This document shows positions 9,890 through 25,401 of a stretch of 64,000 nucleotides of DNA, one piece after another. The notes beneath the pieces are model-generated. The model did no database searches and had not been told where the DNA came from. It saw only the letters and a list, made by a program, of their open reading frames with translations. Position 1 is the stretch's first letter, and every line of letters starts with the position of its first letter. The position numbers and the translations under genes were made by a program. Origin of the DNA: a virus; IMG/VR virus record IMGVR_UViG_3300011187_000003, positions 23,726-87,725 of that record, one strand, 5' to 3'.

Positions 9890-11469
9890 TATAAAACTCT
9901 TTTTATGTAAACCTGAAGGTTTTTGTATCCATTCCATTCATTGATTCCTAGAGTACCAATAATTCCACAATTAAGCTGATGAAATTTATCTGACATTCCA
10001 AAACCTATAGCATCAATACCATCTATACTTGCTGATAAATGCTCTCCTCTGCTTCCTACTAACTCTTTACTACCTATTTCTCCAGTGATTTCAAACTTTG
10101 GAGTAGGATTACCTCTACCAGTAGGATTAAATACTTTTAAGTCATTAATTAAACTTAAGTTAATATCATCAGTTTCAATCTCCATATCAGCTTGCACCTT
10201 TTTGTAGCTTATATCTTTAGTATAATCAAGCATGTATTCTTTAAAGTCATCAATATTATCTTGCCTAATGGATAGGCCACAAGCGAACTTATGCCCTCCA
10301 AAGTTTTCTAAGTATGTATCAGCTGTTTTAAGTGATTCATATATGTTTAATGGTCTTACTGAACGACCACTACCTTTACAATTACCATCCTCATCAGGCT
10401 CACCAATCACAATAACAGGTAGATTTAATTTTTCCTTGATATCTCCTGCTACTAGTCCAACTACACCAGCTGGAATGTCCTCTTGAACGATTATAATATT
10501 ATCATGTTCATTTGTTTTCTTAAGCGCACTCTTAAGCGCTCTCTTAGATATCTCTTTCCTTCTCTCATTAATATTTCTAAGCTCTCTTGCAGTAGAACTA
10601 ACATCTAGCTGGCCTGATAAATACTCAAAACCTTTTTGATTCTCACTCAATCTACCTTGAGCATTAATCAGTGGAGCTATTTGGTAACCAATCTTACCTG
10701 CAGTTATATCTCCTATCTTTTTATTCTGTACATTAGCCAGCTCTCTAAGTGGCTCCATAGGATTACTGTTAAATTTCTTTAGCCCTTCAGCAACTATAGC
10801 TCTGTTGTCGTCTCTTAGAGGCACCACATCAGCCACTGTAGCAAATGCTACAAGGTCTAATACCTCATAAAACTCTTCCTTGAGCAGGTGCCTTGCAACC
10901 ATCCATGCTATACCTGCACCACAGTACTCAGTAAACTCTAAGTCACCACTCTCTACCTTTAAATCAACAAACTCAGTACCAATTGATTCTTCAGCTTCAT
11001 GGTGGTCTATTACTATCACATCAATACCTTCTTCTTTTAATTGTTTTATGTATTCCCAATCACTAATACCACAGTCAACTGTGATAACTAAATCTTTACC
11101 TTGTTCTAATATGTAATCAACTACCCTCTGAGAAAGGCCATAACCATCCTTAAACCTACTGCTAATCATACCCTCTACATTATCTGCCCCTAACTTTTCA
11201 AGCATCTTATAGAGGATTGTCGCACCTGATGTACCATCTACATCATAATCACCATAGACAAGAATCTGGCTTTGGTATTCTAGATGCTGAGAAATTATCG
11301 CCTCTATTCTATCAATATTTGGTATATTATTAGTGTCCTGTAGGTTATCTATGCTAGGGTGAAGAAAATTTCTAAGCTCAGAATAAGAAGAAGCAAGCCC
11401 TCTTTTTTCTAAGAGCTTACTTATTATTTCATCAAACCCAAAATCATCTAAGACTTCTTGTTCTTTCAT
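9889..11469 (-). CDS. recJ: ssDNA-specific exonuclease RecJ
   Basis: YGDYDVDG, TVDCG, IDHH, ATVADVV, GSGRS and FGGH motifs. Confidence 0.95.
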   Translation of the reverse strand: MKEQEVLDDFGFDEIISKLLEKRGLASSYSELRNFLHPSIDNLQDTNNIPNIDRIEAIISQHLEYQSQILVYGDYDVDGTSGATILYKMLEKLGADNVEGMISSRFKDGYGLSQRVVDYILEQGKDLVITVDCGISDWEYIKQLKEEGIDVIVIDHHEAEESIGTEFVDLKVESGDLEFTEYCGAGIAWMVARHLLKEEFYEVLDLVAFATVADVVPLRDDNRAIVAEGLKKFNSNPMEPLRELANVQNKKIGDITAGKIGYQIAPLINAQGRLSENQKGFEYLSGQLDVSSTARELRNINERRKEISKRALKSALKKTNEHDNIIIVQEDIPAGVVGLVAGDIKEKLNLPVIVIGEPDEDGNCKGSGRSVRPLNIYESLKTADTYLENFGGHKFACGLSIRQDNIDDFKEYMLDYTKDISYKKVQADMEIETDDINLSLINDLKVFNPTGRGNPTPKFEITGEIGSKELVGSRGEHLSASIDGIDAIGFGMSDKFHQLNCGIIGTLGINEWNGYKNLQVYIKRVL

Positions 11470-11521
11470 TTTACTAATACCATCCCTTCCTTATTTGCAA
11501 AAATCCAATATTTGAAAATAA

Positions 11522-11782
11522 CTAAATAATCAAAGCGTTTTCTACTCTCTCCATATCTTCACCTAAAATGGTAACAATACTCATTGTCTTATTGTTCATT
11601 GTAAAAATTAATGAACCAATACCACTCTTAAAACATAGATAGCCATCAGTAAACCTATTTAACTTTATAGTTTTATATTTATCATGGAGAAGATAGGCCA
11701 GCTGGTCAGTAGATATATCTCTGTCATCCAGCCTATCCTCAGCATGGTCAGTTAACTTAACATGAATATCATTAATCTGCAT
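11522..11782 (-). CDS. DUF4258/RelE-like small protein
   Basis: LTDHAEDRL..R.I start and C-terminal IVT strand. Confidence 0.5.
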   Translation of the reverse strand: MQINDIHVKLTDHAEDRLDDRDISTDQLAYLLHDKYKTIKLNRFTDGYLCFKSGIGSLIFTMNNKTMSIVTILGEDMERVENALII

Positions 11783-11797
11783 TGCGATTACCTCCTT

Positions 11798-12685
11798 CTA
11801 AAAACTTAACGAATTAACCTGCTTCTTCTTCTTCTTACTATCAACATGAGTATAAATCTGTGTAGTAGCAAGGTCAGAATGTCCTAGTATCTCCTGTAAA
11901 GCCTTGATATCTTTAGTCTTTTTATAGAACAGAGTACTGAAAGTATGTCTAAGCTTATGTGGGGTAATTCTCTTATTAATATTAGCTTGATTAACATAAG
12001 CTTTAACCAGCCTCTGTACAGTCCTCTTACTCACAGCATTTCCCCTATTAGACAAGAATACAGGCTCTTTATCTTTCTTGTAGCAGGTACCTCTTTCATT
12101 ATTAATGTAATCAACCAAGTATTCCTTAGCCTTATCATGTAGTGGGACAACTCTGTCCTTATTGCCCTTACCTTTTTCAACATCAATAACACCATTACTA
12201 AAGTCTATGTTATCAAGGTCTAAACTACATACCTCACTTACTCTCAATCCTGAGAAGGTCATTAAATAAACAATGGCTTTGTTCCTCTTAGGAGACCTGC
12301 TGTCATCACCATCAACAGCCTTAAAGAATTGCTTAAGCTCATGCTCATCCATATACACTGGCTTCTTATTGCTTCTCTCTTTAACTTTTTCTAAACCTGT
12401 AGCTGGAGAAGTTAGAATTTTGTCCTTATCTTCAAGGTAGCTGTAGTATTTTTTAATAGAGTACATCTTCCTGTTTCTTGTGGATGATGCATTGTTTTGA
12501 TTAACATAATTTAAAAACTCATTAATCTCCTTTGCAGAATAGCTCTCGTATTCTGCATCACTGCTGTTATGAAAGTTTATAAACTGCTTAATATCATTAG
12601 AATAATTCTCTGCAGTCAACTCACTATGTCCCCTCTCAGTAATAAGATAATCTTTGAAATTCTGAATAGTCTTAGAAAATTTCAT
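11798..12685 (-). CDS. xerC: XerC/XerD-family tyrosine recombinase
   Basis: SGLRVSE, KGKGNKDR, TPHKLRHTF, LGHSDLATTQIYTH. Confidence 0.9.
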   Translation of the reverse strand: MKFSKTIQNFKDYLITERGHSELTAENYSNDIKQFINFHNSSDAEYESYSAKEINEFLNYVNQNNASSTRNRKMYSIKKYYSYLEDKDKILTSPATGLEKVKERSNKKPVYMDEHELKQFFKAVDGDDSRSPKRNKAIVYLMTFSGLRVSEVCSLDLDNIDFSNGVIDVEKGKGNKDRVVPLHDKAKEYLVDYINNERGTCYKKDKEPVFLSNRGNAVSKRTVQRLVKAYVNQANINKRITPHKLRHTFSTLFYKKTKDIKALQEILGHSDLATTQIYTHVDSKKKKKQVNSLSF

Positions 12686-12763
12686 TGTTTATTACCTCCT
12701 CTTCATTTGTTAAGTTTATTATACCATCCATAATATTACTTGTCAAGGATTTTTTATAATAAT

Positions 12764-13291
12764 TTACATTTGTAATACATTAGAAAAATATTTCAGCTGT
12801 TCTTTAATTTCCTGAGATTGTCTATCAAATAATTTATAGGGTTTTAGTACACCAACAATCTTACCATCATCAATGATTGTTAGTACCTCACTGTTCTCTT
12901 TGTATCCAAATTCCTTGTTCTCAAATATCTTAAGATAGTTACTATTAATACAACCAAACCTATTACCTGCAATAAATAATGGATTACCCTTAAAGGATAT
13001 TTCAGTAACAGTAGCTGAGTTATCACTGCTTGCAGGTGTACCAAGCGTTTCTGCAGTAGGATTATATTCATTCTCCTCTGCATCATACTTAATAGCATCA
13101 CCTATCTGTAGAGTAGGAGCCTCAGCTCTTTTTTTATACCCACTCCATTTGTTAATGAATGTCTTATATCCTTCTAAGTCTAGCTTAAGCATCAGGATTA
13201 AGTCACTCACTAAGAACTCATCATCAGCAGGGCGTTCAATCCACAGCCTGCCAGTCTTATTAAAAGCTTGTGCAATCTTTTTGTGCTTCAT
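12764..13291 (-). CDS. Hypothetical protein
   Basis: GAGGAGG RBS and promoter at 13313-13341. Confidence 0.65.
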   Translation of the reverse strand: MKHKKIAQAFNKTGRLWIERPADDEFLVSDLILMLKLDLEGYKTFINKWSGYKKRAEAPTLQIGDAIKYDAEENEYNPTAETLGTPASSDNSATVTEISFKGNPLFIAGNRFGCINSNYLKIFENKEFGYKENSEVLTIIDDGKIVGVLKPYKLFDRQSQEIKEQLKYFSNVLQM

Positions 13292-13328
13292 TTTTTTCCC
13301 TCCTCTACTATTATTATACACATCTAAG

Positions 13329-13712
13329 CTAATTTTTTAAACCAATAATTGAATTAAATTTTATTTTTTCTTTGAGATAGTTAATCATCTTATCATCAGG
13401 GTAGTTTTTATCATAATATTCCAGCATATTCTCTACCTCACCAGCTGTTACTTGAGCTAAGAATTGATTAGCCCTCTGCTTAAATTGCTCTACTTCAAAA
13501 TCATTATGTTCTTTGTCACCCTGAAATTTAAACTTCTTTTCACATAGATTAAACCTCCAATAAAATAGAAGTGTATCAATTGCATCATAAAAGCTAACAG
13601 TATTGATATTGGTACCCTCATCTGCATAGACTTCTTCAAGGCTAAAGTCAGTTCTTTTTACCTGTGGAGAGTTTTTAAATCTTATAAGCTTACTTCTCCA
13701 TCTACTTTGCAT
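13329..13712 (-). CDS. Hypothetical protein
   Basis: ORF with RBS, translationally coupled. Confidence 0.6.
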   Translation of the reverse strand: MQSRWRSKLIRFKNSPQVKRTDFSLEEVYADEGTNINTVSFYDAIDTLLFYWRFNLCEKKFKFQGDKEHNDFEVEQFKQRANQFLAQVTAGEVENMLEYYDKNYPDDKMINYLKEKIKFNSIIGLKN

Positions 13713-13891
13713 TATTTATCATCCCCTTCTATAGTTAAGTTATAGTCAACTTCATCCCTAATACCTTCTATTTCAGTAATCTCCCCATCTCTCTCCTCAA
13801 CTTCCTTGGTATCAATGTCACCTAATTCAAAAGATGCTGTCACCTCTGCATCATAACCACCATTATCATTTTTGGTTAACTTAATATCCAT
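13712..13891 (-). CDS. Small acidic hypothetical protein (59 aa)
   Basis: AAGGAG RBS, MDIKLTKNDNGGY…; fills operon gap. Confidence 0.6.
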   Translation of the reverse strand: MDIKLTKNDNGGYDAEVTASFELGDIDTKEVEERDGEITEIEGIRDEVDYNLTIEGDDK

Positions 13892-13906
13892 TATTATTAT
13901 CTCCTT

Positions 13907-14242
13907 TTATTTATCATACTCATTTAATCCTAAGCTAACATCCTCCAGTTTTTGAAGCAGGCCAAAATACTCTTTTGTGTCAAGTTCTTTATTATTGAAT
14001 TGTTCAGTAGCACAATTACCTATAGTTTCAAATGCATTATAAACACTCATTTCAGCAAATATATCTTTAATCTGCCCCTTATCATCTTCATAAAACTCAC
14101 AGGCCAGACTCCACCCTTCCTCAATTATGCTCTTAGCCTCAGCATAAGATATATCATACTTTTGTGCATATTCTTTAGCCTTACCCTTTCTTATCTCTTT
14201 AAAGGTAGCCTCTAACTCTTTAACTTTATTAGGTTTCTTCAT
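13907..14242 (-). CDS. Hypothetical protein
   Basis: AGGAGGAG RBS. Confidence 0.65.
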   Translation of the reverse strand: MKKPNKVKELEATFKEIRKGKAKEYAQKYDISYAEAKSIIEEGWSLACEFYEDDKGQIKDIFAEMSVYNAFETIGNCATEQFNNKELDTKEYFGLLQKLEDVSLGLNEYDK

Positions 14243-14267
14243 TATATCTCCTCCTATAATATATTTT

Positions 14268-14561
14268 TTATTCCATATACCTATCTAGTCCATCTATCTT
14301 AATTATAGCTTGCCAGCTGACATACCATTCATAGAGTTCCTTCTCATTACTGACTAAATACTGGCCTTCAGTGGAACCAACATCAAGCAGGTCATAGCTT
14401 CTACCTATCTTCCCATAGAATAAGCTTCCCACCTTATCTACCTTATGGTAGATATGGTCATAAAACTCATCTCTGTCTAGGTCTTTTGGTAGCTGGTCAC
14501 CTAATGTATCATCCAAAAACTCTGCCCCATCATTGTAATATTTCATGTTAACTTCCTTCAT
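14268..14561 (-). CDS. Hypothetical protein
   Basis: GAGGAGG RBS, coupled. Confidence 0.6.
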   Translation of the reverse strand: MKEVNMKYYNDGAEFLDDTLGDQLPKDLDRDEFYDHIYHKVDKVGSLFYGKIGRSYDLLDVGSTEGQYLVSNEKELYEWYVSWQAIIKIDGLDRYME

Positions 14562-14962
14562 TATTTATTACCTCCTCTAGTTAGTCCCATAATTGAACGC
14601 CTAACTCTAATAGCTTGCTCAGTCCTCTCTAGTAAATCAGCTATCTTCTTGTCCTCAACTCCTTGATTATATAGAAACTCAAGTAATCTCATATCCTTGC
14701 TAGTCCAAATAAACATGTTCCTACTATCAGTAAACTTACTATCAGCATCAAACTTAATAGCATAACCTGTCGTATTACTGAAGATTACTGTTAAGTCATC
14801 AACTGTTTTTAAATCCTCTAAATACCTAAACACAGTTCTCCTGCAAACACCTAAGTATTCAGCTATCTCCTCAGCAGTCAGTGCAAGGTTGTTATTGATA
14901 TAATCTATCATCCTTAACAACCTTACAAACTTTTTCTCTAAGCGTTTATCCTTCATAGCCAT
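14561..14962 (-). CDS. Double-HTH DNA-binding protein (HTH_11-like N-terminus)
   Basis: LTAEEIAEYLGVCRRTVFRYLEDL; second HTH WTSKD…IADLLERTEQAI. Confidence 0.7.
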   Translation of the reverse strand: MAMKDKRLEKKFVRLLRMIDYINNNLALTAEEIAEYLGVCRRTVFRYLEDLKTVDDLTVIFSNTTGYAIKFDADSKFTDSRNMFIWTSKDMRLLEFLYNQGVEDKKIADLLERTEQAIRVRRSIMGLTRGGNK

Positions 14963-15344
14963 ACACAGTCTTGTAGCTTACCCCCTCTTCAATATCTTTT
15001 AAGCAATCACCATCTGATTTATATATTTGACCTATTGAGTGATATTGGTGTTTGTCCTTGCTAGATTGCATATAGATTGTCCAAAAACGACCTGTATATT
15101 GCCCCTTAACTTCAGACTCTAATACATAACTTTTTTCATCTTCACCCCAATTGATGAGCTTGTACACCTTGCCATCAATAGTTTTTGTGTTATCATATCC
15201 CCCCATATAGAAGTCAGGGTCATCAATGATATCTACCTCTGCTATCACATACTTAGGCTGTTCACCTTCAAAATGGAAGTCCCTCTTGTAATCACTAATG
15301 TCAGCATCCTTAACATAATCAAACAGGTTATCAAATAATTTCAT
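14946..15344 (-). CDS. Hypothetical protein
   Basis: AGGAGGT RBS. Confidence 0.65.
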   Translation of the reverse strand: MKLFDNLFDYVKDADISDYKRDFHFEGEQPKYVIAEVDIIDDPDFYMGGYDNTKTIDGKVYKLINWGEDEKSYVLESEVKGQYTGRFWTIYMQSSKDKHQYHSIGQIYKSDGDCLKDIEEGVSYKTVYGYEG

Positions 15345-15396
15345 TTTATTACCTCCTAAGTTTTTTTGGTCACTCTGCTTTTAGACTGTTGCTGTT

Positions 15397-15882
15397 TTAG
15401 ATATGGAGAATATTCTTTCTGAGCAAGAAGTTAACTGCACCTCTTACACTATCAAAGTCAACTTCTTTTTTCTTTTCTCCATTTACATACTTATTATAAT
15501 ACACTTTGTCACTACCTACAATTTTTACCTCAAGTACTTTGTCATGCCCCCTGTTGTCATTATACTCAAACCTATACTGCTTATTGTTCATCAGCTCCTC
15601 CATTATTTGTTTTGCTTTAATCTTTTGATACTGACTCTTATAGTCACTGAGCTGTCCATACTCCATATGAGTAGTGAAGTCCCTCATCTTATCTATGTCA
15701 TCATCATCCCACATCCTGTTGCCACCATCAGTCCACTTAGGCTCAGGAACTAGCCTGCCCATACCAACCTCTTTACCTTTTCTACTTAATACATCCCATT
15801 TATGAACAGTCAGTTTAGTAACACCTACAAGCTCTGCTGTTTCATTTATAGTATAATACCTTCTACCATCTATTACTTTCAT
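15397..15882 (-). CDS. MerR-type HTH DNA-binding protein
   Basis: YYTINETAELVGVTKLTVHKWD…P..TDGGNRMW…DI. Confidence 0.7.
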   Translation of the reverse strand: MKVIDGRRYYTINETAELVGVTKLTVHKWDVLSRKGKEVGMGRLVPEPKWTDGGNRMWDDDDIDKMRDFTTHMEYGQLSDYKSQYQKIKAKQIMEELMNNKQYRFEYNDNRGHDKVLEVKIVGSDKVYYNKYVNGEKKKEVDFDSVRGAVNFLLRKNILHI

Positions 15883-15985
15883 TATTTATTACCTCCCTTT
15901 CATTCTACTTGTTATAATAACATATCCAGTATAATATGTCAACCTTTAATTTGGATTAATTACCTCTGTTATTAGAGTGTTGCTG

Positions 15986-16618
15986 TTAAGCAAAATCAAG
16001 GTTATTAAATAGCTTTTGTGCTTGCTCCATTGATATCATATCACCAGCATGCTCCATTAGGCCATTGCTTTCAAACTCATTGCCATAAAAACCAAAGCAG
16101 GAGTCAATTAACTCCTTTTCTGTATGTCCACAATGCTCACAGGCCTCTTTTTTAAAGAGTTCAAACCCATATACTTTACCCTGAAGGTAATTGTTATAAG
16201 TTTTAACTTCTCCTTTTAACATTTTTCTAGTAAGCTCCAAAGTATCCTCTGTTATTTCATCTGTCATAAACCATTCTTTAATATCTTCATAAGTAGCATA
16301 GATAAACCCAATCTCTCCTGAATCCCACTCAGCATGATGTGCTCTGCCTACAAATGATTTAGTATCCATTGCTAGCTGGGAATGGTCATAGAGGTATAGA
16401 GGCAGAATAACAGCTTTCTCAGGCTCTTCTACCTGATGTTCTATTTCCCCTTGCCAACTACCTTCTTTACCTGTAGCCTGTGCATCCCCTAAGTCATATC
16501 TTTTATGCTCACACACCATTGTTCCTAAGTTATCCCACTCTCTAGGGGTTTTAGCATGCTCATCATTATATATCTCCAGCATTAAATCCTCTGTCTTTGC
16601 TTTATATACTTTTCTCAT
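15986..16618 (-). CDS. Conserved-looking acidic phage early protein
   Basis: PREWDNLGTM, LPLYLYDHS, WDSG.IGF, DSCFGFYG motifs; GAGGAGG RBS. Confidence 0.7.
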   Translation of the reverse strand: MRKVYKAKTEDLMLEIYNDEHAKTPREWDNLGTMVCEHKRYDLGDAQATGKEGSWQGEIEHQVEEPEKAVILPLYLYDHSQLAMDTKSFVGRAHHAEWDSGEIGFIYATYEDIKEWFMTDEITEDTLELTRKMLKGEVKTYNNYLQGKVYGFELFKKEACEHCGHTEKELIDSCFGFYGNEFESNGLMEHAGDMISMEQAQKLFNNLDFA

Positions 16619-16641
16619 TATTTATAACCTCCTCAAGGTTT

Positions 16642-16713
16642 TTAATTCCAGTAACTGCTTTCACCTGACAACAAAGCTGATATCAGGTACATTATATCAT
16701 ATAAATTTTGCAT
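16642..16713 (-). CDS. Possible 23-aa mini-ORF with hairpin-sequestered RBS
   Basis: GAGGGGCTGATATCAG-ATG…; MQNLYDIMYLISALLSGESSYWN*. Confidence 0.3.
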   Translation of the reverse strand: MQNLYDIMYLISALLSGESSYWN

Positions 16714-16735
16714 CTGATATCAGCCCCTCTCTGTT

Positions 16736-17221
16736 TTACTCTTCTTCTTTATCATGCCATTGAAGGCCTCTTGCTTCATAAAGTGGTGTCCAGTGATGGG
16801 AATAAAAGTCATAATCAGCACCATCAATACCAAAGTATAGAGTGCCTGTTTCAATAAATTCATATACCCTGAACCCACACTGCTTCATGATATCAATGTT
16901 TTCTCTAGCCCATTCCTCATCGAACCCTGAACCAAATGTCCACAGCGTACCCCACATAGGGAGGAATGAATCAGGCTCATCATAAAGGTCATCAATGTCA
17001 ACCTCAACCTCCCCTTCTACTATTGCCTTATCTCCACTAACCTCCATTACTTCAACCTTGCGCTGAAGCTCATTGCTCCAAACATAATCTCCTTCTACAA
17101 TAACACTTCTAGTTAACTCATAAAATGAATCAATATTATTTTTAAGCACACTCTCAATCAAACTGTATTCTACTGCATCAAACCCATTTGCCCACTCTCT
17201 AACTGCATCTTTTTTATCCAA
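16736..17221 (-). CDS. Hypothetical protein (TTG start)
   Basis: PMWGTLW and FGIDGADYDFY..HW motifs; promoter and RBS. Confidence 0.7.
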   Translation of the reverse strand: MDKKDAVREWANGFDAVEYSLIESVLKNNIDSFYELTRSVIVEGDYVWSNELQRKVEVMEVSGDKAIVEGEVEVDIDDLYDEPDSFLPMWGTLWTFGSGFDEEWARENIDIMKQCGFRVYEFIETGTLYFGIDGADYDFYSHHWTPLYEARGLQWHDKEEE

Positions 17222-17300
17222 AGTTATAACCTCCTCAAGGTTAATGTCTTATTAACTTCACTATAATTATTATAACATAATCACTATACCATGTCAAACA

Positions 17301-17645
17301 TTAATTAACATGTTTTTGATATGATTCTTCAGGAATAAAAATCTTTCTTGCTAAGATAACATCCTGATTAGTAGGCTTCCTTCTATCTCCAGCCACATAG
17401 CACTCAACAATAACTCTGTCCTTCTCTGTCCTGAAGTTATCTAAGTAGTCCTCAGTCTGCTCTTTAGTAGGCAGTACATGGATGCCTGTTACATAGTATC
17501 TATCATTACCACCATCTCTACCCCACCTAATCTCTGCCTCATACCATCTATTAGGGAGCAGTGTTCTGTTCCTGTTAATCCCCTTAAATAAATTTTTAAG
17601 TTTATCATCTTTCCTTAACATTATTTTATATGCTTTTTGAATCAT
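17301..17645 (-). CDS. Hypothetical protein
   Basis: GAGGAGGT RBS; preceded by a long structured leader. Confidence 0.65.
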   Translation of the reverse strand: MIQKAYKIMLRKDDKLKNLFKGINRNRTLLPNRWYEAEIRWGRDGGNDRYYVTGIHVLPTKEQTEDYLDNFRTEKDRVIVECYVAGDRRKPTNQDVILARKIFIPEESYQKHVN

Positions 17646-17654
17646 ATGTATTTA

Positions 17655-17778
17655 CCTCCTCTGTCGTATTTGAAGGCCACACTGTTAGGAGCTTATAACC
17701 CCTAACAGTAAGGAGCTGACACATCTATATAGCAAGGAGCTGATTTCTCACTACTTTGTGGCCTTATTACCTTCACTA
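17655..17778 (-). ncRNA. Structured leader/sRNA with repeated anti-RBS motif (TC)AGCTCCT
   Basis: Promoter 17784-17812; 9-bp closing stem AAGGCCACA/TGTGGCCTT; motifs at 17734-17744, 17710-17719, 17687-17693. Confidence 0.55.
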
Positions 17779-17840
17779 ATTATATTGTATCAAGCATGGT
17801 ATAGTTTGTCAAGTCATATATGGAATTTATTAAAATTATT

Positions 17841-18248
17841 TTATTCTCTTCTCTCAAACTGTAACCTGAAGTCACCTTCAAAGATAAACATAATATACAC
17901 ATCATCATTATTGATGTTTAAGTTTTCATTTAAGTATTCACTTGCTACATCTACAAGTCTATTGCTCCAGTAAATGTGCTCTTCAAGCTGTTCATGATAT
18001 CTATCCTCATCCACTTTAAACCCAAACATCTCTAAGGCCTCTTTGACTAAGTACTGCCCTGCTCTGTCAGGCACTAGTATATCAATAACACCTACTTTTC
18101 TATCATCAATATCAGGGTAGATTTCCAAATCATTTTCTGCTCTGTTATTTACTTCTTCTTCAACACTTTCCCAATAAAAATTATCATCTAAGTGATTCTT
18201 TACCTGCTTGTCAAACTCTTCCTTAGTTAACTCTGTTACATCTGTCAT
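17841..18248 (-). CDS. Acidic hypothetical protein
   Basis: Promoter and GAGGAGG RBS. Confidence 0.65.
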   Translation of the reverse strand: MTDVTELTKEEFDKQVKNHLDDNFYWESVEEEVNNRAENDLEIYPDIDDRKVGVIDILVPDRAGQYLVKEALEMFGFKVDEDRYHEQLEEHIYWSNRLVDVASEYLNENLNINNDDVYIMFIFEGDFRLQFERRE

Positions 18249-18331
18249 ATTATTTTTACCTCCTCAATTTTTTATCTTCACTATTAATAGTATAACAAAT
18301 ACATAACATGTTGTCAAGTAATATATCAAAT

Positions 18332-18460
18332 TTATTCCAAAAACAACAATGGAATCCAGCACACCACAACAACAATAAAGAATGTTAAGCTGTCTGTCAT
18401 TGACAAGCTTGTCAGTCCACCTATAGCAAGCAATAAGAACATGTTAATGTAATAAGTCAT
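18332..18460 (-). CDS. Small membrane protein (42 aa)
   Basis: GGAGGGGG RBS; two hydrophobic stretches. Confidence 0.5.
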   Translation of the reverse strand: MTYYINMFLLLAIGGLTSLSMTDSLTFFIVVVVCWIPLLFLE

Positions 18461-18549
18461 GTAATCCCCCTCCTTCGATAGAGGCCACTCTCAGGCCTCT
18501 TAGAAGCTTTGATAATATCTCTCTCCTTCATGTACTCTACATCTAGTTT

Positions 18550-18789
18550 TTATCCCCAATACGCTTTGACATAATCTTTAAACACCTTATTTGCATCTTT
18601 CCTTGTTGTAACTTTAGTCTTATACTTGCTAATCTCTGCAATAGCCTCTTTGCTCTCATTATCCTCATAAACCCTTATCTCAGCCACCGTCAATGAGTTT
18701 TCTTCTTCATATATTTGATATACTTCCTCAACCTCTATGTCAGTATTGTTTAATAAGTGTTGGCGTACAATCTCTGTTAATCTTTGCAT
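18550..18789 (-). CDS. Hypothetical protein
   Basis: AGGAGGT RBS. Confidence 0.6.
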   Translation of the reverse strand: MQRLTEIVRQHLLNNTDIEVEEVYQIYEEENSLTVAEIRVYEDNESKEAIAEISKYKTKVTTRKDANKVFKDYVKAYWG

Positions 18790-18795
18790 ATTTTA

Positions 18796-19014
18796 TTACC
18801 TCCTATAGTTTTCCTTTTGAAGATTTGGGTAAAAAGGTTTAGCTTTATTGAATGTTAGCTTGTCCCCATGAGTTTTAACAAACTCATCTGAGCCAACACC
18901 CATGTAAACTGCCTTCATACCAAATGCATCCTGAGTTAATACAAACTTAATTATACCTCTATCCTCAGTCCCTTTAGGTGCTAGTGGGCTGTCACTATCA
19001 ATAACTTTATTCAT
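18796..19014 (-). CDS. Hypothetical protein
   Basis: Promoter and AAGGAGGT before MNKVIDS. Confidence 0.6.
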   Translation of the reverse strand: MNKVIDSDSPLAPKGTEDRGIIKFVLTQDAFGMKAVYMGVGSDEFVKTHGDKLTFNKAKPFYPNLQKENYRR

Positions 19015-19092
19015 ATTTATTACCTCCTTAATTGATTCTAAACTTAGTATAACACAACCAGTACATGTTGTCAAACAATATATCAAATTATT

Positions 19093-19806
19093 TTAAAAAT
19101 ACAAGTGACTGTAAAACTCTATCTCATGCTTGTTACCTTCAACATCTACAAACCATACCTGTTCACTCCCAACATCTATTTCTATTTCCTCACCTTCAAA
19201 ATCAAACTCAACATCTCCACCACCACGAAAATTATAACCTGCATTTTCTGAACAAGCAGTGCCTACTCCATCTATATTAGCACTAACATCCCTAAGACCC
19301 ATTAAGAAGTAGTCAAATGCAGGGAGCTTAAAGATAACAGGCTTAGTATACCCTCCACGAATGTCGCATCCATTGTGGATGGACAAGATGATATACTCTG
19401 CATCATAGAAATCATCATCATATGGTATAACAAACTGTATATTTTGGTCAAGTACACATTCTTGATTATAAGTATTGCGCACTAACTTATTATCTGCCAG
19501 CTGGTCAGCAAATGTCTCCATATCTGCTAAGTATGAATCCTCTGAATGTTCCATATACTGCTCAAACTTTTTGTTCATTTTTTCAGCATCCTCATCAAAC
19601 TCTAGCATGTTGGTCAGGTAATGATAGACAGGTACATGAAATAGTAACTCATCCTCAAAGTAATCTATCTTTATCTCAGGCTCATCCTCAAAGTCTTTAC
19701 CTTGATTCTCCTCCCAATGTCTACCATATACACTGCCTGAATCTAAAAAGTGACTGCCTGTGTTTTTTGTTAGCATATCCTTTACAGTATCCTTAATATC
19801 CATCAT
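19093..19806 (-). CDS. Conserved-looking acidic phage early protein
   Basis: MLT.NTG.HFLDSG..YGR.W and IH.G.DIRGGYT.P motifs. Confidence 0.7.
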   Translation of the reverse strand: MMDIKDTVKDMLTKNTGSHFLDSGSVYGRHWEENQGKDFEDEPEIKIDYFEDELLFHVPVYHYLTNMLEFDEDAEKMNKKFEQYMEHSEDSYLADMETFADQLADNKLVRNTYNQECVLDQNIQFVIPYDDDFYDAEYIILSIHNGCDIRGGYTKPVIFKLPAFDYFLMGLRDVSANIDGVGTACSENAGYNFRGGGDVEFDFEGEEIEIDVGSEQVWFVDVEGNKHEIEFYSHLYF

Positions 19807-19922
19807 AATTTTTACCTCCTAATTTTTTTGGTCAACTTAACTTCACTAATAATAGTATAACAGTTATGTAATATCATGTCAAGGGTAAATTCAAATTTAT
19901 TTTACCCTTGACAAAATCTTTG

Positions 19923-20576
19923 TTAGAGCAGGCTGTTTAAGTAATCACCTAAACCTATTTCTTGAATCTTATTATTGCGCTCAAAATCAATCTCATAGTT
20001 ATTGAGCTGTTCAGGCTCATTTGCTTCAGATTCTAACCAATTCTCCATTACTTGTTTTTGGTGATAGCCTCTACCTTTCTCCAGCTTTTCTCTAATCTTT
20101 TTTCTAATTTTTTCTCTTGCAGATGGATAATTATCAACGACACAATCTGTTAATACATCACCTTTATTATCCCTTGCAATGTAGCGCTTATATTTATCAG
20201 GCTTTAGCTGGCCAGCATCAACTATCTTATAGAGCCTATCATCATGTACAACTACATTAAAACGCTGTTTAGTCTGCAGGTAATTAAGTAAAGTCATATC
20301 ATTGCAATCATCATAGCTTTGAAACTCATCATCAATAGATGCTTCTGCAATTTTATTAACTGCAAAGTTTAATCTTTTAACATCCCTGTACTCACCACGC
20401 TCTAAGCTATAGCTCCAGCCATACCAATTATCACTATTGTTACCACTCTGTAAAGTAATCTTGCCTGCATTTCTGTATTCCCCATCAAGTCCTTCCTTCA
20501 CATACAGTAAAATACTAACACTCTGAAAACTGCCCTCATTTCTAACATCAGTAACTCTTAACCCTACATATTTCAT
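19923..20576 (-). CDS. Hypothetical protein
   Basis: Promoter and GAGGAGGT RBS. Confidence 0.65.
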   Translation of the reverse strand: MKYVGLRVTDVRNEGSFQSVSILLYVKEGLDGEYRNAGKITLQSGNNSDNWYGWSYSLERGEYRDVKRLNFAVNKIAEASIDDEFQSYDDCNDMTLLNYLQTKQRFNVVVHDDRLYKIVDAGQLKPDKYKRYIARDNKGDVLTDCVVDNYPSAREKIRKKIREKLEKGRGYHQKQVMENWLESEANEPEQLNNYEIDFERNNKIQEIGLGDYLNSLL

Positions 20577-20789
20577 ATAATTATTACCTCCTCAAAATTT
20601 TGTGTTTTAACTTCACTAATTAATATGATAACACAACTAATATACTATGTCAAGAAAAAATTAAAATTAATCTGTAATTAAAATATAGTCATCCTTAATT
20701 ATTACCTCCTAATTTTTTGTGCCTTTCAACCTCACTACAATTAGTATAACATAATCATTATAGTATGTCAAGAAAAAAATAGAATTAAT

Positions 20790-20876
20790 TTATAAAGGTA
20801 CTTGCGCCAGCTACAGAACAAGTACCTCTACATTATTTTATATCAATTAAAGGAGCTGATGCTTCAATTGATTACT
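20790..20876 (-). ncRNA. Candidate ~90-nt trans-acting anti-Shine-Dalgarno sRNA
   Basis: Promoter TTGACA(20911-20906)-17-TATACT; 5' hairpin AUCAAUUGAAG-[CAUCAGCUC]-CUUUAAUUGAU; 3' hairpin AGGUACUUG…CAAGUACCU-UUAU; no RBS on the transcribed strand. Confidence 0.65.
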
Positions 20877-20924
20877 AATAATAGTATAGCAAACTTAATA
20901 ACACATGTCAATGATTAATTATAA

Positions 20925-21110
20925 ATTATTACTATTACTATTGTTATTATTATTATTAAGTATATTATTAATAAGGTTATTAGAAGTATTATTAAGTATA
21001 TTGTTATTAATGTTATTAAGTATATTATTAATAAGGTTATTAGAAGTATTATTAAGTATATATTATTTATTACTATTGTTATTATTATTATTAAGTATAT
21101 TGTTAATACT
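20925..21110. repeat. AT-rich low-complexity tract with a near-perfect 60-bp tandem duplication
   Basis: 20941-21000 vs 21001-21060 differ at 2 positions; TTATTAAGTATA subrepeat. Confidence 0.9.
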
Positions 21111-21387
21111 TTTTTGTTACTATTTTTATTATCTTATTAGGAATATGTTTTAGGAATCTTATTAGTAGTTCTTAACTTCAAGTACAAGTTCAAATTCTAT
21201 TAATTAAAGCAAGTTAAAACTTAGTTTTGTTAGTGGTAAAATATAAATTAATTAAATTAAAAGTATTCTGATAATTATAACCCTAGCTGGCAGGTCTTGA
21301 ATTTAAAAGCTCTGTCGTATTTCAGTAGTTTTCTGTTAAAATAAAAAAGAGCGTCGTATTTCAGAGGTTCGCTGTTATAAATATGTA

Positions 21388-21440
21388 ACGCGCACATACA
21401 CACACACGCGCAGGCGCGCACACACGCACACACACGCGCG
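21388..21440. repeat. Alternating purine-pyrimidine (CA/CG) tract, Z-DNA prone
   Basis: ACGCGCACATACACACACACGCGCAGGCGCGCACACACGCACACACACGCGCG. Confidence 0.9.
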
Positions 21441-21469
21441 ATTATATCACAAATCACATTGAATGTCAA
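21441..21469 (-). promoter_or_regulatory. Consensus sigma-A promoter firing into the RY tract
   Basis: TTGACA-17-TATAAT with extended TG. Confidence 0.75.
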
Positions 21470-21503
21470 GTAATATATCAAATTCTTTATATTTTTAATT
21501 GTT

Positions 21504-21545
21504 TGAATTGTGTACACAATTCACCTGTGGATAACTTTATCCACA
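21504..21545. promoter_or_regulatory. Perfect 20-bp palindrome followed by an inverted pair of DnaA boxes
   Basis: TGAATTGTGTACACAATTCA at 21504-21523; TGTGGATAA 21526-21534 and TTATCCACA 21537-21545. Confidence 0.75.
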
Positions 21546-21899
21546 AACTATACCAAACTACTAAAGATTAATTATATAATCAGATCAAAGTTATAGCTAC
21601 TCCACATAAAAATCTATATTTTACAGAATCTACCATTTTGGTATAAATTACCAAAGCAGGTAGTCTTTTAAGATATACTATAATCTTACAAAAATCAGGC
21701 TCCTTTTTTTAACATAGAAGTCCCAAGAAAAAGATGGCCATATTTAATTATCAATGTTCAAATCTTCAAGGTTCAATAATACAATAACACAAAAAAATAA
21801 TATCGTCAAATTTAACTTTTCCCTTGACAAAGTATATCAAGGCTGATATAGTATTAAGTAGTAAGACAGAAAAACAAAAAATTAAAGGAGCTGAGGCAA

Positions 21900-22175
21900 A
21901 TGTTAGATATTAAAATTTCAGGACATGCAAGCAGTCAGGCCAGCGACAGACATTTAAAAAAGCAGTCATTATTAAATATTATATTAGAGCTTAAGCAGGC
22001 AGATTTTAACGAATTTATAAATTCTAAATATATATATGCTTGCTTAAGAGACAGGCAGAAAAAAGAGTCTGTAGTTATTGCAGTTAATAACTCTACAATT
22101 ACTATTGTAACAGTAATTAACAAAGTTATGCGCTGTAATAACTACCCTGATACGATAATAATAAATGTTAAATAA
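21900..22175 (+). CDS. DUF4258/RelE-like small protein
   Basis: ISGHA..QA.DR and ITIVTVI; AAAGGAGCTGA RBS. Confidence 0.55.
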   Translation: MLDIKISGHASSQASDRHLKKQSLLNIILELKQADFNEFINSKYIYACLRDRQKKESVVIAVNNSTITIVTVINKVMRCNNYPDTIIINVK

Positions 22176-22299
22176 AATTTGACAAAGTATAATGAATCTG
22201 ATAACATGTTAAATAGTGAAGATGAAAAACATTAAATATTAGCTTGCTCAAAGGCCTGAGAAGGCCTGAGAAGCAGGCTAAAAAAAGGAGCTGATATTA

Positions 22300-22548
22300 A
22301 TGGATAAAAAATTAAAAGATGTTGAGAAGCTGGCAGATGTTGAAGAGGCAGGCACTAAAGTAGTAAGTAATTGTTTTAGTATCACAGCAATTGTTGATGG
22401 TTTAACAGAATCAGTTTTTTATCAGTATAATGGAGCTTTAACAGGTGATATCAAAAAAGCTAAAATTAAATATAATTCATTTACTGGAGCGCCTTATTTT
22501 ATAGATGATAGACAAATAAAACATGAATTATGTAAATTTATTAGCTAA
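22300..22548 (+). CDS. Hypothetical protein
   Basis: AAAGGAGCTGAT RBS. Confidence 0.65.
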   Translation: MDKKLKDVEKLADVEEAGTKVVSNCFSITAIVDGLTESVFYQYNGALTGDIKKAKIKYNSFTGAPYFIDDRQIKHELCKFIS

Positions 22549-22566
22549 AAAAAGGAGCTGATATTA

Positions 22567-22641
22567 ATGAATAAAAAGAAGCGCTTGCAGATTGATTTTA
22601 TTGCAGAGGATGCAGAAAATTTATTAAATAATTCTAATTAA
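22567..22641 (+). CDS. 24-aa mini-ORF
   Basis: Same AAAGGAGCTGATATTAATG start context as 22300. Confidence 0.4.
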   Translation: MNKKKRLQIDFIAEDAENLLNNSN

Positions 22642-22720
22642 TTCTTGACAAAGTATAATAGAGCTGATATAGTATTAAGTAGTAAGACAGAAAAACAAAA
22701 AATTAAAGGAGCTGGTTAAG

Positions 22721-23050
22721 ATGATTATTACTTTTAACATTCCAAAGCAGGACAACGACAAGAATAAATTTGACGACAGCAAGCTACAAGGTTATATCAA
22801 GCAGGTATGTAAAGTGACTGGTGGCACTACCACCTATCAGGCCAAAGGTCAGTATATAATGGAATCTGGCAAGATGACAAGCGATAATAATTATATGGTT
22901 AAAACAAGCACTGATTCAAGGCAGGACTTGCAAGAAGTTAAAAGAATAATTGCAGGCATGGCCAAAGATTTAAGTCAAGAATCAATCTATTTTGAAGTGC
23001 AGCAGGCAGATGTTGAGTTTATAACTGCTGACATGAATCAGGCAGTATAG
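22721..23050 (+). CDS. Ferredoxin/PII-like small protein (DUF3574/phage SAM-lyase-like pattern)
   Basis: GG.T…A.G.Y…and L.QESIYFE motifs; promoter and RBS. Confidence 0.45.
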   Translation: MIITFNIPKQDNDKNKFDDSKLQGYIKQVCKVTGGTTTYQAKGQYIMESGKMTSDNNYMVKTSTDSRQDLQEVKRIIAGMAKDLSQESIYFEVQQADVEFITADMNQAV

Positions 23051-23184
23051 TCAGATCAAAAAACAGGCCTTGTAAAAGAGGCCTGATAAAAAATAATTCT
23101 AATTATTATTTGACAAAGTTTAATGCATCTGATATAGTGTTAAGTAGTGAAGATGAAAACAAAAAATTAAAGGAGATGATAATT

Positions 23185-23463
23185 ATGAAAACAAACGACA
23201 AAAAAATTGAATCTATTGAAGGCCTGCAGGATGCAATTAAGGACTTGAAGAATCAGGACATTTATTTGATTGAAAATGTGGAGCTTGAAGCAGGCGACAT
23301 CTATCAAGTTTTAAAAGATGTTGACATTGCAGATCAAAGATATATGGAGACTTTAAAAGATACAGTAGAGTTTTACGCAAGACCTGAATGGGACAGAGAT
23401 AAAAAAATTTATCCTGCAATCTGGATTAATCCAACATCTGAAAAGTTAGTATTTGAGTATTAA
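23185..23463 (+). CDS. Hypothetical protein
   Basis: Promoter and AAAGGAGATGAT RBS before MKTNDK. Confidence 0.65.
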   Translation: MKTNDKKIESIEGLQDAIKDLKNQDIYLIENVELEAGDIYQVLKDVDIADQRYMETLKDTVEFYARPEWDRDKKIYPAIWINPTSEKLVFEY

Positions 23464-23613
23464 AGGTTAAAAAATATCAGGTCTGCAAAAATCAGGCCTG
23501 ATAAAAATAAAATAAAATTTAAAATAATTCTTGATATTACTTGACAAAGTATAATAAACTTGTTATACTATAGATAGTGAAGATGAAAACAACACAAAAA
23601 AAGGAGCTGGTTT

Positions 23614-23880
23614 TTGATGATTAAAAGAAAAGAATTAATTAAACTTGTTGAGGAGAATAAAAGAGAAAAAAGACAAGAAAAGTGGATGATAATAGAGAAG
23701 TGCGAAGCACTTACAGAAAAGAGAAAAAGAGGCAATTTAATAGCTGAAAGTATCATTGAAATTCTAAAGCAAGGTAATGACTTTTATGCGAGTGAAGTTA
23801 ATAACTCAAAAAATAATTTGAGATTCGTTTTGAATATATTGGATAACAAAGATTATATAATTGATATTGACAAAAAATAA
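23614..23880 (+). CDS. Hypothetical protein
   Basis: Promoter and AAGGAGCTG RBS. Confidence 0.6.
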   Translation: MMIKRKELIKLVEENKREKRQEKWMIIEKCEALTEKRKRGNLIAESIIEILKQGNDFYASEVNNSKNNLRFVLNILDNKDYIIDIDKK

Positions 23881-23953
23881 TTATAATTATCAGGCCTTGT
23901 AAAAGAGGCCTGATAATTATTAAATAACTTAGATCAAAACCAATTAGGAGCTG

Positions 23954-24235
23954 ATGCAAATGGAGAAAAAAATTAAAAAGATGCAAGAATTTTTTGAAGG
24001 CAGAGAAGTTAAGGTAACAGGCTGGAGTGAAGACACCACTAAAGAGATGGTGATGGAAGTAGAGAACAATAAAGAAACGATAACTTTAAAAGATTCTAAC
24101 AGTCAAATTTTTTTATTAGTTAGCAAAAAAGCACTTGACAGAATTGATATTTTAGAACACTTAAGAGAAGGCAAAAAAGCAAGCATTCTAATCTATGGTG
24201 ATGGTATCACAGTTTATGTTCAAACAATAAAATAA
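23954..24235 (+). CDS. Hypothetical protein
   Basis: AGGAGCTG RBS. Confidence 0.6.
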   Translation: MQMEKKIKKMQEFFEGREVKVTGWSEDTTKEMVMEVENNKETITLKDSNSQIFLLVSKKALDRIDILEHLREGKKASILIYGDGITVYVQTIK

Positions 24236-24323
24236 TCAAATAGCAAGGCCTGAAAAAAAGGCCTTGCTTCTATCTTAAAGAATCAGATCAAAGTTAATAA
24301 GTTAAAATAATATTAGTCAATTC

Positions 24324-24353
24324 GCTTCAAGCTTAAGAGCTTGGAGCTTTTTT
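24324..24353 (+). terminator. Rho-independent terminator
   Basis: GCTTCAAGCT-TAAG-AGCTTGGAGC-TTTTTT. Confidence 0.7.
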
Positions 24354-24900
24354 GTATTTATACCATGTAACTATATTATTAAAAGCTATATAGAAGCGCT
24401 AAGAAGCTCATTAAGCACTTTTAAGCGAATCATGGTATTATGAGGCCTTGAATAAATAAAAGGCCTTAAATAACTATTTAAATCTTTATAAGGTGCTATA
24501 TAATTATAATATACATATTATATCAATAATAGCATACTATCATATATTAGAACCTTATAAGAGGCCATGAGAAGCGCTTTAAATAGCTTGCAGTTATATA
24601 TACATATTAATAGGCCTGCAGTAACTAAAAGCTTTATATGGAGCTTTTAGCGCTTTTTGAGACCTGCAGCACTATTAAGTATAGTACTACTAAAACTATT
24701 TGAATTAATTTAATATATAGCTTGACAAAGTATAACTAAAGCCTTATAATGGTACATAGTGAGACAGGGAAGAAAAAAGAGTGCTGGCAAAACTTTTTAA
24801 AAAATATCAAATAAAGCTTGACAAAGTATAACAAACTTGTTATTATGTTAAGTAGTGAGGGACACAAAAGAACAACAAATTTTAAAAGGAGATGATAATT

Positions 24901-25047
24901 ATGTTTTATGTTGGATGGGAAGAATTGAAGAGCTGGAAACCAGAGCTAACAGAGAAAGAAGCAAAGAAGCAAGCAAGGCAGATTGACAAAGATTGCGTAG
25001 AGCTGGAAAGAGAATTAAGAGAATCAGGAGAATACGAAAACTTATAA
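24901..25047 (+). CDS. Small charged protein (48 aa)
   Basis: Promoter 24818, AAGGAGATG RBS, MFYVGWEELKSW…. Confidence 0.55.
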   Translation: MFYVGWEELKSWKPELTEKEAKKQARQIDKDCVELERELRESGEYENL

Positions 25048-25112
25048 GAATCAAAGGCCTTGTGATAGCAAGCAAGGCCACAATATAAAAAATTAAAAGG
25101 AGCTGATAGAAG

Positions 25113-25385
25113 ATGAATAATATTGATAAAATAGCAAAGTTTTTTGAGGAAAGAGAAGGCAAAGAATTTATAGAATTAGGATATAATCAAGGTAAAAGAT
25201 TAATAGATTTTAGCTTTAAATTAGATAAAATTAATCGTAAAAGAGAAACAAGAATAAAATTAATATTAAATAATAATGAGCCACAAAGGTTTGTAGAATC
25301 AAATATTAAAGAACTATATAGTGGTGATTATTTGCTAAAAATTGAGCTTATAAATGGTCTGATTCTTAGAATTATTAAAAAATAA
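25113..25385 (+). CDS. Hypothetical protein, N-terminus similar to 23954 gene
   Basis: KI..FFE.RE shared with 23954; AAAGGAGCTGAT RBS. Confidence 0.6.
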   Translation: MNNIDKIAKFFEEREGKEFIELGYNQGKRLIDFSFKLDKINRKRETRIKLILNNNEPQRFVESNIKELYSGDYLLKIELINGLILRIIKK

Positions 25386-25401
25386 AACTAAAAAGCCTGA
25401 G

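Follow-up and report, generated by a model that had tools for sequence, protein, structure and literature searches.

This study examined a leader RNA in a 64,000-nucleotide (nt) stretch of phage DNA, hereafter the window, which comprises bases 23726-87725 of an 87,725-bp IMG/VR record with direct terminal repeats. The leader precedes a small leftward gene at 17301-17645 and contains a 93-nt structured insert with two copies of the 10-nt word UCAGCUCCUU and one shorter copy, AGCUCCU. The analysis confirmed that these words, termed seeds, are non-random and lie in a structured, promoter-proximal non-coding insert. The 10-mer is exactly complementary to AAGGAGCUGA, which serves most rightward early genes as their ribosome site. 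Judging from the sequence, the insert may act against ribosome sites in the manner of the c4 RNA of phages P1 and P7 without belonging to the c4 family, a reading to which we assign a probability of roughly 40%.

Structure of the leader

The promoter at 17812-17784 is the only one of 10 leftward promoters with a leader of approximately 132 nt; seven others lead to a gene through a leader of approximately 20-50 nt, and two (20911 and 21469) drive gene-less RNAs. A comparison of the 10 leftward promoters revealed that only this cassette has a structured insert. Transcription probably starts near A17777, as suggested by the -10 box and the TAGTGAAG box; this start box follows 7 of the 10 leftward promoters, and TAGTGAGG follows one more. 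The parts of the leader are given below, together with their state in L059, a sister strain and the one locus recovered by a scan of the metagenome collection, which is mosaic and 95.7-99.2% identical to the window in blocks.

17784-17812, minus strand: sigma-70-type promoter, TTGACA-17-TACAAT with an extended TG, 11/12 matches; identical in L059
17646-17777, minus strand: predicted 5' leader of approximately 132 nt, with its putative start at A17777 and the ATG of the gene at 17645
17673-17765, minus strand: 93-nt structured insert, closed by AAGGCCACA/UGUGGCCUU, as judged by minimum free energy and shuffles
17765-17757 and 17681-17673, minus strand: closing stem AAGGCCACA/UGUGGCCUU, a perfect 9 bp on paper
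17734-17743, minus strand: seed 1, UCAGCUCCUU (11 nt with the preceding A); same in L059
17710-17719, minus strand: seed 2, UCAGCUCCUU; UCAACUCUUU in L059
17681-17709, minus strand: sub-hairpin of 13 bp including G-U pairs, the 3' arm of which holds seed 3
17693-17687, minus strand: seed 3, AGCUCCU; same in L059
17663-17671, minus strand: AAAUACGAC box directly 3' of the insert; kept in L059
17655-17661, minus strand: ribosome site GAGGAGG of the leftward dialect, belonging to gene 17301-17645
17301-17645, minus strand: orphan gene of 114 amino acids after the leader, with no family and a single 90%-identity cluster of 12 members

Frequency and location of the seed word

The leftward-sense strand contains only 12% C, and in positions 1-21500 of the window the exact 10-mer was observed three times on this strand, against 0.003 copies expected from independent bases and 0.006 from a first-order Markov model. 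Two of these copies lie in the leader and the third lies in a gene-less RNA near 20850. The first-pass annotation had argued that finding the same seed at a second non-coding, promoter-proximal place spoke against chance, and these counts bear it out; the second, independent location is the main reason for taking the anti-site idea seriously. The 7-mer occurs four times on the same strand of the same region (0.63 expected), with all four copies in the leader or in the RNA near 20850. Across the window, the 7-mer was found 21 times (9.97 +/- 3.21 in shuffled sequences) and the 10-mer with at most one mismatch 23 times (5.59 +/- 2.41), and neither count was reached in any of 100 shuffles. In the whole genome, the nine copies of the 10-mer comprise five at the ribosome sites of genes, three in the two RNAs, and one within a coding region. 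As a control, words that mirror the remaining site dialects (ACCTCCT, CACCTCCT, and CACTCCTT) were counted on the sense strands, where they had 0-1 copies.

The starts of seeds 1, 2, and 3 are exactly 24 nt apart. A manual comparison of the two 24-nt units that hold seeds 1 and 2 showed identity at 10 of 10 positions in the core and at only 5 of 14 outside it, a pattern that points to selection on the core. A tandem-repeat origin was rejected, as Tandem Repeats Finder makes no repeat call on the 24-nt spacing. The two-seed pattern, with seeds 8-30 nt apart, was also sought in IMG/VR and set aside: it returned 57 stretches, which are chance matches unrelated to this phage and among which blastn gave nothing and tblastx gave one 94-amino-acid match at 34% (L030).

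The occurrence of nine copies of the 10-mer in both orientations within 87.7 kb, and the regular 24-bp spacing of three sites, would also fit a double-stranded DNA site recognized by a phage or host protein in either orientation, which would be present at each rightward cassette and three times in the left arm. We consider this quite improbable, because every coding-sense copy is placed like a ribosome site, approximately 5-10 nt ahead of a start codon. In addition, the word is not palindromic and does not form a pair of direct repeats, 24 bp is not a helical repeat, and no candidate binding protein was found.

The first-pass annotation had also named a plus-strand alternative, a CsrA sponge with GGA motifs; in this case an RNA with AAGGAGCUGA repeats would bind up CsrA-like proteins or ribosomes. 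The plus strand does carry three GGA or Shine-Dalgarno (SD)-like motifs. However, no strong plus promoter was found near the element in the left arm (the nearest candidates match at 9/12), neither plus-strand copy has a start codon at the SD distance, and the entire arm is coded leftward, so that this alternative is hardly credible. Nor does the element resemble a CsrB/RsmZ-type sponge, since GGA occurs only in three motifs on the plus strand, which has no strong promoter there, and the element has no Rfam match.

The second RNA that carries the seed has the following position.

20790-20911, minus strand: gene-less RNA behind a promoter; AUCAGCUCCUUU is flanked by the two arms of what may be a 7-bp stem, as read from the sequence

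This RNA and the leader insert are on the same strand and have the same seed and the same predicted targets. They differ in that the former is a free promoter-hairpin unit with one seed, whereas the latter comprises three copies inside an mRNA leader, and the two share the core word only. A near-copy of the seed with one extra G, AUCAGGCUCCUUUUUUU, was also observed on the plus strand at 21691-21710, a short distance upstream of where the rightward promoters begin; it is 85% complementary to the site region 23596-23615, and no convincing promoter was seen for it.

Ribosome-site dialects and predicted pairing

The ribosome sites of this phage fall into dialects. Among the rightward early open reading frames (ORFs) from 21900 to 25113, seven of nine use AAGGAGCUG(A/G) or UAGGAGCUGA, with AAGGAGCUGA at ORFs 21900, 22300, 22568, and 25113, AAGGAGCUGG at 22721 and 23617, and UAGGAGCUGA at 23960; the remaining two (23185 and 24901) use AAGGAGAUGA. 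In the leftward rows from 15344 to 20576, 10 of 13 sites are GGAGGU(A/U)A, and the rightward form was found at a credible start in 0/13. The late genes mostly use AAGGAG(G)UGAU. A strain-specific cassette, seen as a loose end in one of the metagenome runs (X7), carries the same AAAGGAGCTGAT.

The tail of the 16S ribosomal RNA of B. subtilis is printed as GAUCACCUCCUUUCU in a passage of PMC5427494. The seed AUCAGCUCCUU equals the 16S tail AUCACCUCCUU with one C->G change, the tail being that of B. subtilis, which may not be that of the host, and the rightward sites equal the ideal site with the matching G->C change. An exact 10-11-nt complement of the seed is present at four ribosome sites in the window and a complement with one mismatch at three more, as follows.

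21885-21894, plus strand: predicted target AAGGAGCUGA, gene 21900; predicted opening cost 0.6 kcal/mol
22285-22294, plus strand: predicted target, ribosome site of gene 22300
22552-22561, plus strand: predicted target, ribosome site of the short ORF at 22568
22706-22715, plus strand: predicted target with one mismatch (AAGGAGCUGG), gene 22721
23601-23610, plus strand: predicted target with one mismatch, gene 23617
23945-23954, plus strand: predicted target with one mismatch (UAGGAGCUGA), gene 23960
25097-25106, plus strand: predicted target, ribosome site of gene 25113

The predicted duplex energies of seeds 1 and 2 with the rightward GCUG sites ranged from -16.4 to -22.1 kcal/mol, compared with -11.2 to -12.9 kcal/mol for the 16S tail (as given in the cited passage of PMC5427494) with the same sites. 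On the leftward sites, the values were -8.8 to -10.5 kcal/mol for the seeds and -12.9 to -13.6 kcal/mol for the tail. The seeds are thus predicted to beat the 16S tail on the rightward sites and to lose to it on the leftward sites. Pairing of the seeds with the SD of their own gene, GAGGAGG, was predicted to be poor (-8.3 to -11.6 and -8.8 to -9.9 kcal/mol in two sets of predictions). The predicted cost of opening the target sites was 0.6-5.7 kcal/mol, and co-folds with three target leaders gave gains of -13.7 to -15.5 kcal/mol, always through seed 2. These calculations support the view that seeds 1 and 2 would be energetically able to bind the rightward ribosome sites. Because of the one-letter change in seed and site, the phage RNA should out-compete the ribosome only on the rightward class, sparing the leftward GAGGAGGUAA sites.

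Selection for RNA-RNA pairing with the rightward sites is suggested by several features taken together: exact cores set in unrelated flanks, their location and strand, complementarity that is specific to one gene class, and the predicted energies. The 93-nt insert of this early leftward leader would then be a regulator at the RNA level, in which the two accessible copies of UCAGCUCCUU would pair with the AAGGAGCUG(A/G) SD of the rightward early cassettes; pairing would hide these sites from the 30S subunit and lower their translation, and the gene-less RNA near 20850 would act likewise. We infer leader transcription from 17812-17784, pairing in the cell, the drop in translation, and the direction of control.

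The direction of control could also be the reverse, with the leader serving as a sensor: abundant rightward mRNAs would bind the seeds and refold the leader, altering the translation or decay of the downstream gene, or both partners would be degraded. The pairing energies would be equal to those of an anti-ribosome-site RNA, and in the minimum-energy structures of the co-folds, target binding opens the closing stem and the freed GCCUUC pairs with the leader's own GGAGGU. Such a switch nevertheless appears unlikely. It is based on single minimum-energy structures, the leader's own SD is already largely open in the free leader (unpaired probability 0.49-0.70), and the predicted switch is not conserved, because the downstream SD and its spacing differ in L059.

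Fold of the insert and accessibility of the seeds

The minimum free energy (MFE) of the 93-nt insert alone was -36.0 kcal/mol (z -4.30), and none of 200 shuffled sequences was as stable. The 141-nt stretch with flanks reached a z of only -1.75, with 13 of 200 shuffles as stable. The closing stem and the sub-hairpin both claim U17681, and the minimum-energy fold therefore comprises 8 + 13 bp. The perfect 9-bp closing stem that had been described from the letters is exact in the sequence, but the MFE fold uses 8 of its pairs and L059 keeps 6 contiguous ones.

The two 10-mers had been described as probably unpaired, which was half right: seeds 1 and 2 had predicted mean unpaired probabilities of 0.49 and 0.42 and predicted opening costs of 5.0 and 2.1 kcal/mol, respectively. 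The third copy at 17693-17687 does lie inside the sub-hairpin, as had been noted, and is fully paired in the predicted fold. Full sequestration of the seeds, which the first-pass annotation had said would count against its antisense reading, thus holds for seed 3 and not for seeds 1 and 2. A species of approximately 95 nt might possibly be excised from the leader, but the sequences lend no support to cutting at the closing stem, as the first-pass annotation had proposed, and this stem is not kept in L059.

Variation among strains and relatives

L059 has no differences from the window between 18265 and 17716, promoter included, and its leader has four differences, namely 17716 G>A, 17712 C>T, 17680 G>A, and 17679 T>A. 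Two window genes and the target region are missing from this locus. Between the leader and the 114-amino-acid gene, L059 carries an extra gene for a 140-amino-acid DUF7447 protein (1255-1678; E 2e-16), which is absent from the present genome, the junction lying between acagag and gagg. The same 480-nt insertion was found in the run contigs X5, X7, and X13, whereas X2 was like the window; X13 joins 17823 to 18329 and thereby loses the upstream gene. The leader region of X5, X7, and X13 showed 2-3 differences each (piece counts).

The assignment of the leader to gene 17301-17645 consequently stands for the present genome, but DUF7447 follows the leader in L059 and in three of the four runs and is its commoner partner. 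All four runs and L059 keep the promoter-leader unit, although its neighbouring genes on either side vary, which indicates that it is a cassette head of its own.

The leader could in addition encode a 33-amino-acid peptide from an ATG at 17723. This frame is open in both strains (35 codons in L059), and two of the four L059 substitutions are synonymous by manual reading, although four substitutions are too few for a judgement. The ATG lacks a preceding ribosome site and the frame crosses the start of the next gene, so that a peptide is very improbable.

Searches of IMG/VR with the 114-amino-acid protein, a 237-amino-acid protein, RecJ, and the DUF7447 protein of L059 gave no relatives, and the exact hairpin word and the rightward promoter-to-SD pattern each had 0 matches there. 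The capsid alignment reached two genomes, G001 (61%) and G002 (58%), as well as a near-identical fragment of 22 kb that lacks the early region; capsid relatives with 66-79% identity also exist (P0014-P0017). The DnaE of G001 is 65% identical. G001 has a single copy of the word CAGCTCCTT, which serves there as an ordinary SD, and G002 has none. The genome collection contained one contig, in a Bacillota metagenome-assembled genome, with 46% capsid identity, which was set aside as too distant. Among cultured phages, megablast with 17000-19000 and tblastn with the capsid gave no close relative, and the only matches to RecJ were at 33% identity or less.

Evidence against an anti-ribosome-site function

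Several results weigh against the interpretation of the insert as an anti-ribosome-site RNA. Seed 3 is buried, with a predicted core unpaired probability of 0.0 and an opening cost of 10.7 kcal/mol. The L059 substitutions G17716A and C17712T destroy seed 2, and the predicted duplexes fall to -7.0 to -12.7 kcal/mol, while those at 17680 and 17679 break three of the nine closing-stem pairs and leave six contiguous. In the L059 alignment, 4 of the 10 mismatches of an 855-nt block lie in the leader (approximately 110 nt), and the 114-amino-acid gene has diverged further (19 mismatches over 437 nt). The leader thus stands out neither for its conservation nor for freedom to vary, and nothing in it points to special constraint. 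Strict and relaxed promoter scans of the early ends, together with an SD listing, revealed neither the promoter and SD dialect nor the seeds in G001 and G002. Early-type promoters of consensus form precede both the leader and all of its predicted targets, which leaves no obvious temporal switch. Finally, the plus strand of the RNA near 20850 matches the ribosome-site context 21880-21897 at 17 of 18 positions, and because of this match to a rightward SD context, at least that copy could be a relic by descent.

The claim of a multivalent RNA is not upheld, since one seed is buried and another is dispensable in the sister strain, so that three-fold valency fails. On conservation, seeds 1 and 3 are unchanged in L059, but seed 2 is lost there and the two capsid relatives lack the seeds altogether. 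The antisense proposal of the first-pass annotation therefore retains its non-random, structured, and exactly complementary word with favourable predicted energies, but not its three-fold valency or a closing stem that is kept.

These results could be accommodated if the structured hairpin were the selected feature, acting on its own mRNA in stability, in processing, or as a protein-binding site, and the seeds were relics of a ribosome-site fragment that had been inverted or duplicated and had no function in trans. The fold is significant in both strains (z -4.23 in L059, with the folded stretch shifted by 4 nt), and two of the four L059 substitutions (17680 and 17679) extend the 13-bp inner hairpin to 17 bp in the strain that has lost seed 2. 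Debris of this type is plausible given the frequent reshuffling of cassettes, with joints at promoters and an empty 4-codon cassette, and the 17/18 match near 20850 fits a relic. However, a relic fails to explain two exact 10-mer cores with flanks that agree at 5 of 14 positions, leaves unexplained why a C-rich word on a C-poor strand is confined to non-coding promoter-proximal RNA, and sits uneasily with the finding that the leader seeds share just 10-11 nt with any SD context. We regard this explanation, the main rival, as possible but doubtful.

Comparison with known regulators

In the passages of PMC12197685 and PMC8198154 that describe it, the c4 RNA of phages P1 and P7 is an operon-leader RNA, in which short complementary stretches, probably in loops, pair around a ribosome-binding site and block translation. 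The insert resembles this RNA of the immI operon in being leader-borne and in having short stretches, predicted to be exposed, that are complementary to a ribosome-binding region (opening 2.1-5.0 kcal/mol). Like P1, the present phage also has plasmid-style functions, namely a ParM/Alp-like gene, a Xer-type recombinase, and, according to the first reading of the DNA, DnaA boxes. The two differ in their targets: c4 acts on downstream genes of its own operon, whereas the seeds have seven predicted target cassettes on the opposite arm and match their own SD poorly.

Processing of c4 depends on RNase P, and Rfam includes a c4 model. The window had 0 matches to Rfam 15 at gathering scores, and at E values up to 10 the region 17500-17950 gave two chance matches only, SNORD31 and MIR408. 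ARAGORN found no tRNA, tmRNA, or anything tRNA-like.

The RsaE/RoxS, RNAIII, and LhrC RNAs of low-GC Gram-positive bacteria are free-standing small RNAs of the host with C-rich or UCCC motifs that present CCC/UCCC loops to generic sites. The insert is similar in having several pyrimidine-rich stretches per RNA, each able to pair with G-rich sites of several mRNAs. It differs in that its word imitates the 16S tail over 10-11 nt, apart from one letter, is matched to a private dialect, and lies inside an mRNA leader, and it does not belong to that group, given that it has no Rfam match and its motif is GCUCCU, not UCCC. T4 RegA is a protein repressor that shuts off the translation of a set of early messages through their ribosome-binding regions; the functional idea is alike, but RegA is a protein, whereas the regulator proposed here is an RNA with base-pairing specificity.

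A wider proposal is that the phage has an orthogonal circuit, in which one early block uses a private one-letter site variant and mimics of the 16S tail with the compensating letter, in the form of a free small RNA and a multi-seed leader, bind that block alone and repress it; we put this forward tentatively and consider it somewhat unlikely. A ParM/Alp-like actin protein of 343 amino acids is encoded at 11046-12077 on the minus strand of the genome record, outside the window (ALP_N, E 1.2e-17), and its gene is the sole user of the private site AAGGAGCTGA outside the rightward block. This gene and the Xer-type recombinase are hints of a plasmid-prophage lifestyle. Given these plasmid-style genes and the DnaA boxes, the circuit could be an immI-like RNA immunity in which the dialect provides specificity.

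If the anti-ribosome-site interpretation is correct, the phage would distinguish one class of genes by altering one letter of their ribosome sites and control that class through RNA copies of the ribosome's anti-site with the compensating change. Such a translation switch would be compact, programmable, and orthogonal; it would parallel T4 RegA at the RNA level and broaden the c4 principle of P1 and P7. It would also mean that mRNA leaders, besides free small RNAs, can carry regulators of this type.

The surrounding promoter cassettes

The phage has a GC content of approximately 34%, and the metagenome runs in which it occurs carry lake-water or salt-lake labels. No RNA run is listed among these 24, which says nothing on expression. 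The window encodes a DnaE-type polymerase, RecJ, DnaB, the Xer-type recombinase (11798-12685), PhoH, and a T4-type terminase. From approximately 15.9 to 25.9 kb, near-consensus promoters form two arrays that point away from each other, and behind each promoter come a short leader, then a ribosome site, and then an orphan gene of small size; family searches with the neighbouring proteins gave weak matches or matches of unknown function only.

The box directly 3' of the insert coincides with the 9-mer AAATACGAC, of which the window has four copies (0.09 expected), all on the minus strand, at 17663-17671, 21314-21322, 21353-21361, and 4660-4668. The first three are in leftward non-coding RNA, those at 21314-21322 and 21353-21361 being in the gene-less transcript of the perfect promoter 21469-21441. 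No complementary copy of this 9-mer was found anywhere in the genome. Right after this promoter, the sole leftward one with 12/12 matches, lie approximately 52 nt of alternating purine-pyrimidine (CG/TG)n at 21380-21432 on the minus strand, also gene-less.

Strains in the four lake runs differ by the gain or loss of whole cassettes, and the joints between cassettes in 16177-25400 lie at or near repeated promoters and leaders (for example, 17823>18329, 18513>18801, 16621>17224, 22276>22544, and 19019>19812). Promoter-cassette exchange in T4-type phages is a similar shuffling system. A cassette that looks emptied is located at 20680-20771 on the minus strand, where a promoter and a ribosome site are followed only by a 4-codon ORF (MTIF) and then by the next promoter.

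Among the rightward cassettes, only that of promoter 22179 has a long leader, of approximately 90 nt (22208-22299, plus strand), which mirrors the leader at 17646-17777 and contains GGCCUGAGAA twice inside a possible AGCUUGCU/AGCAGGCU hairpin. In G001, at 11148-14660, the DnaE match is split in two (L063 and L065) within one frame of 1196 amino acids, compared with 1023 amino acids in the present phage, and the split is possibly an intein or another insertion.

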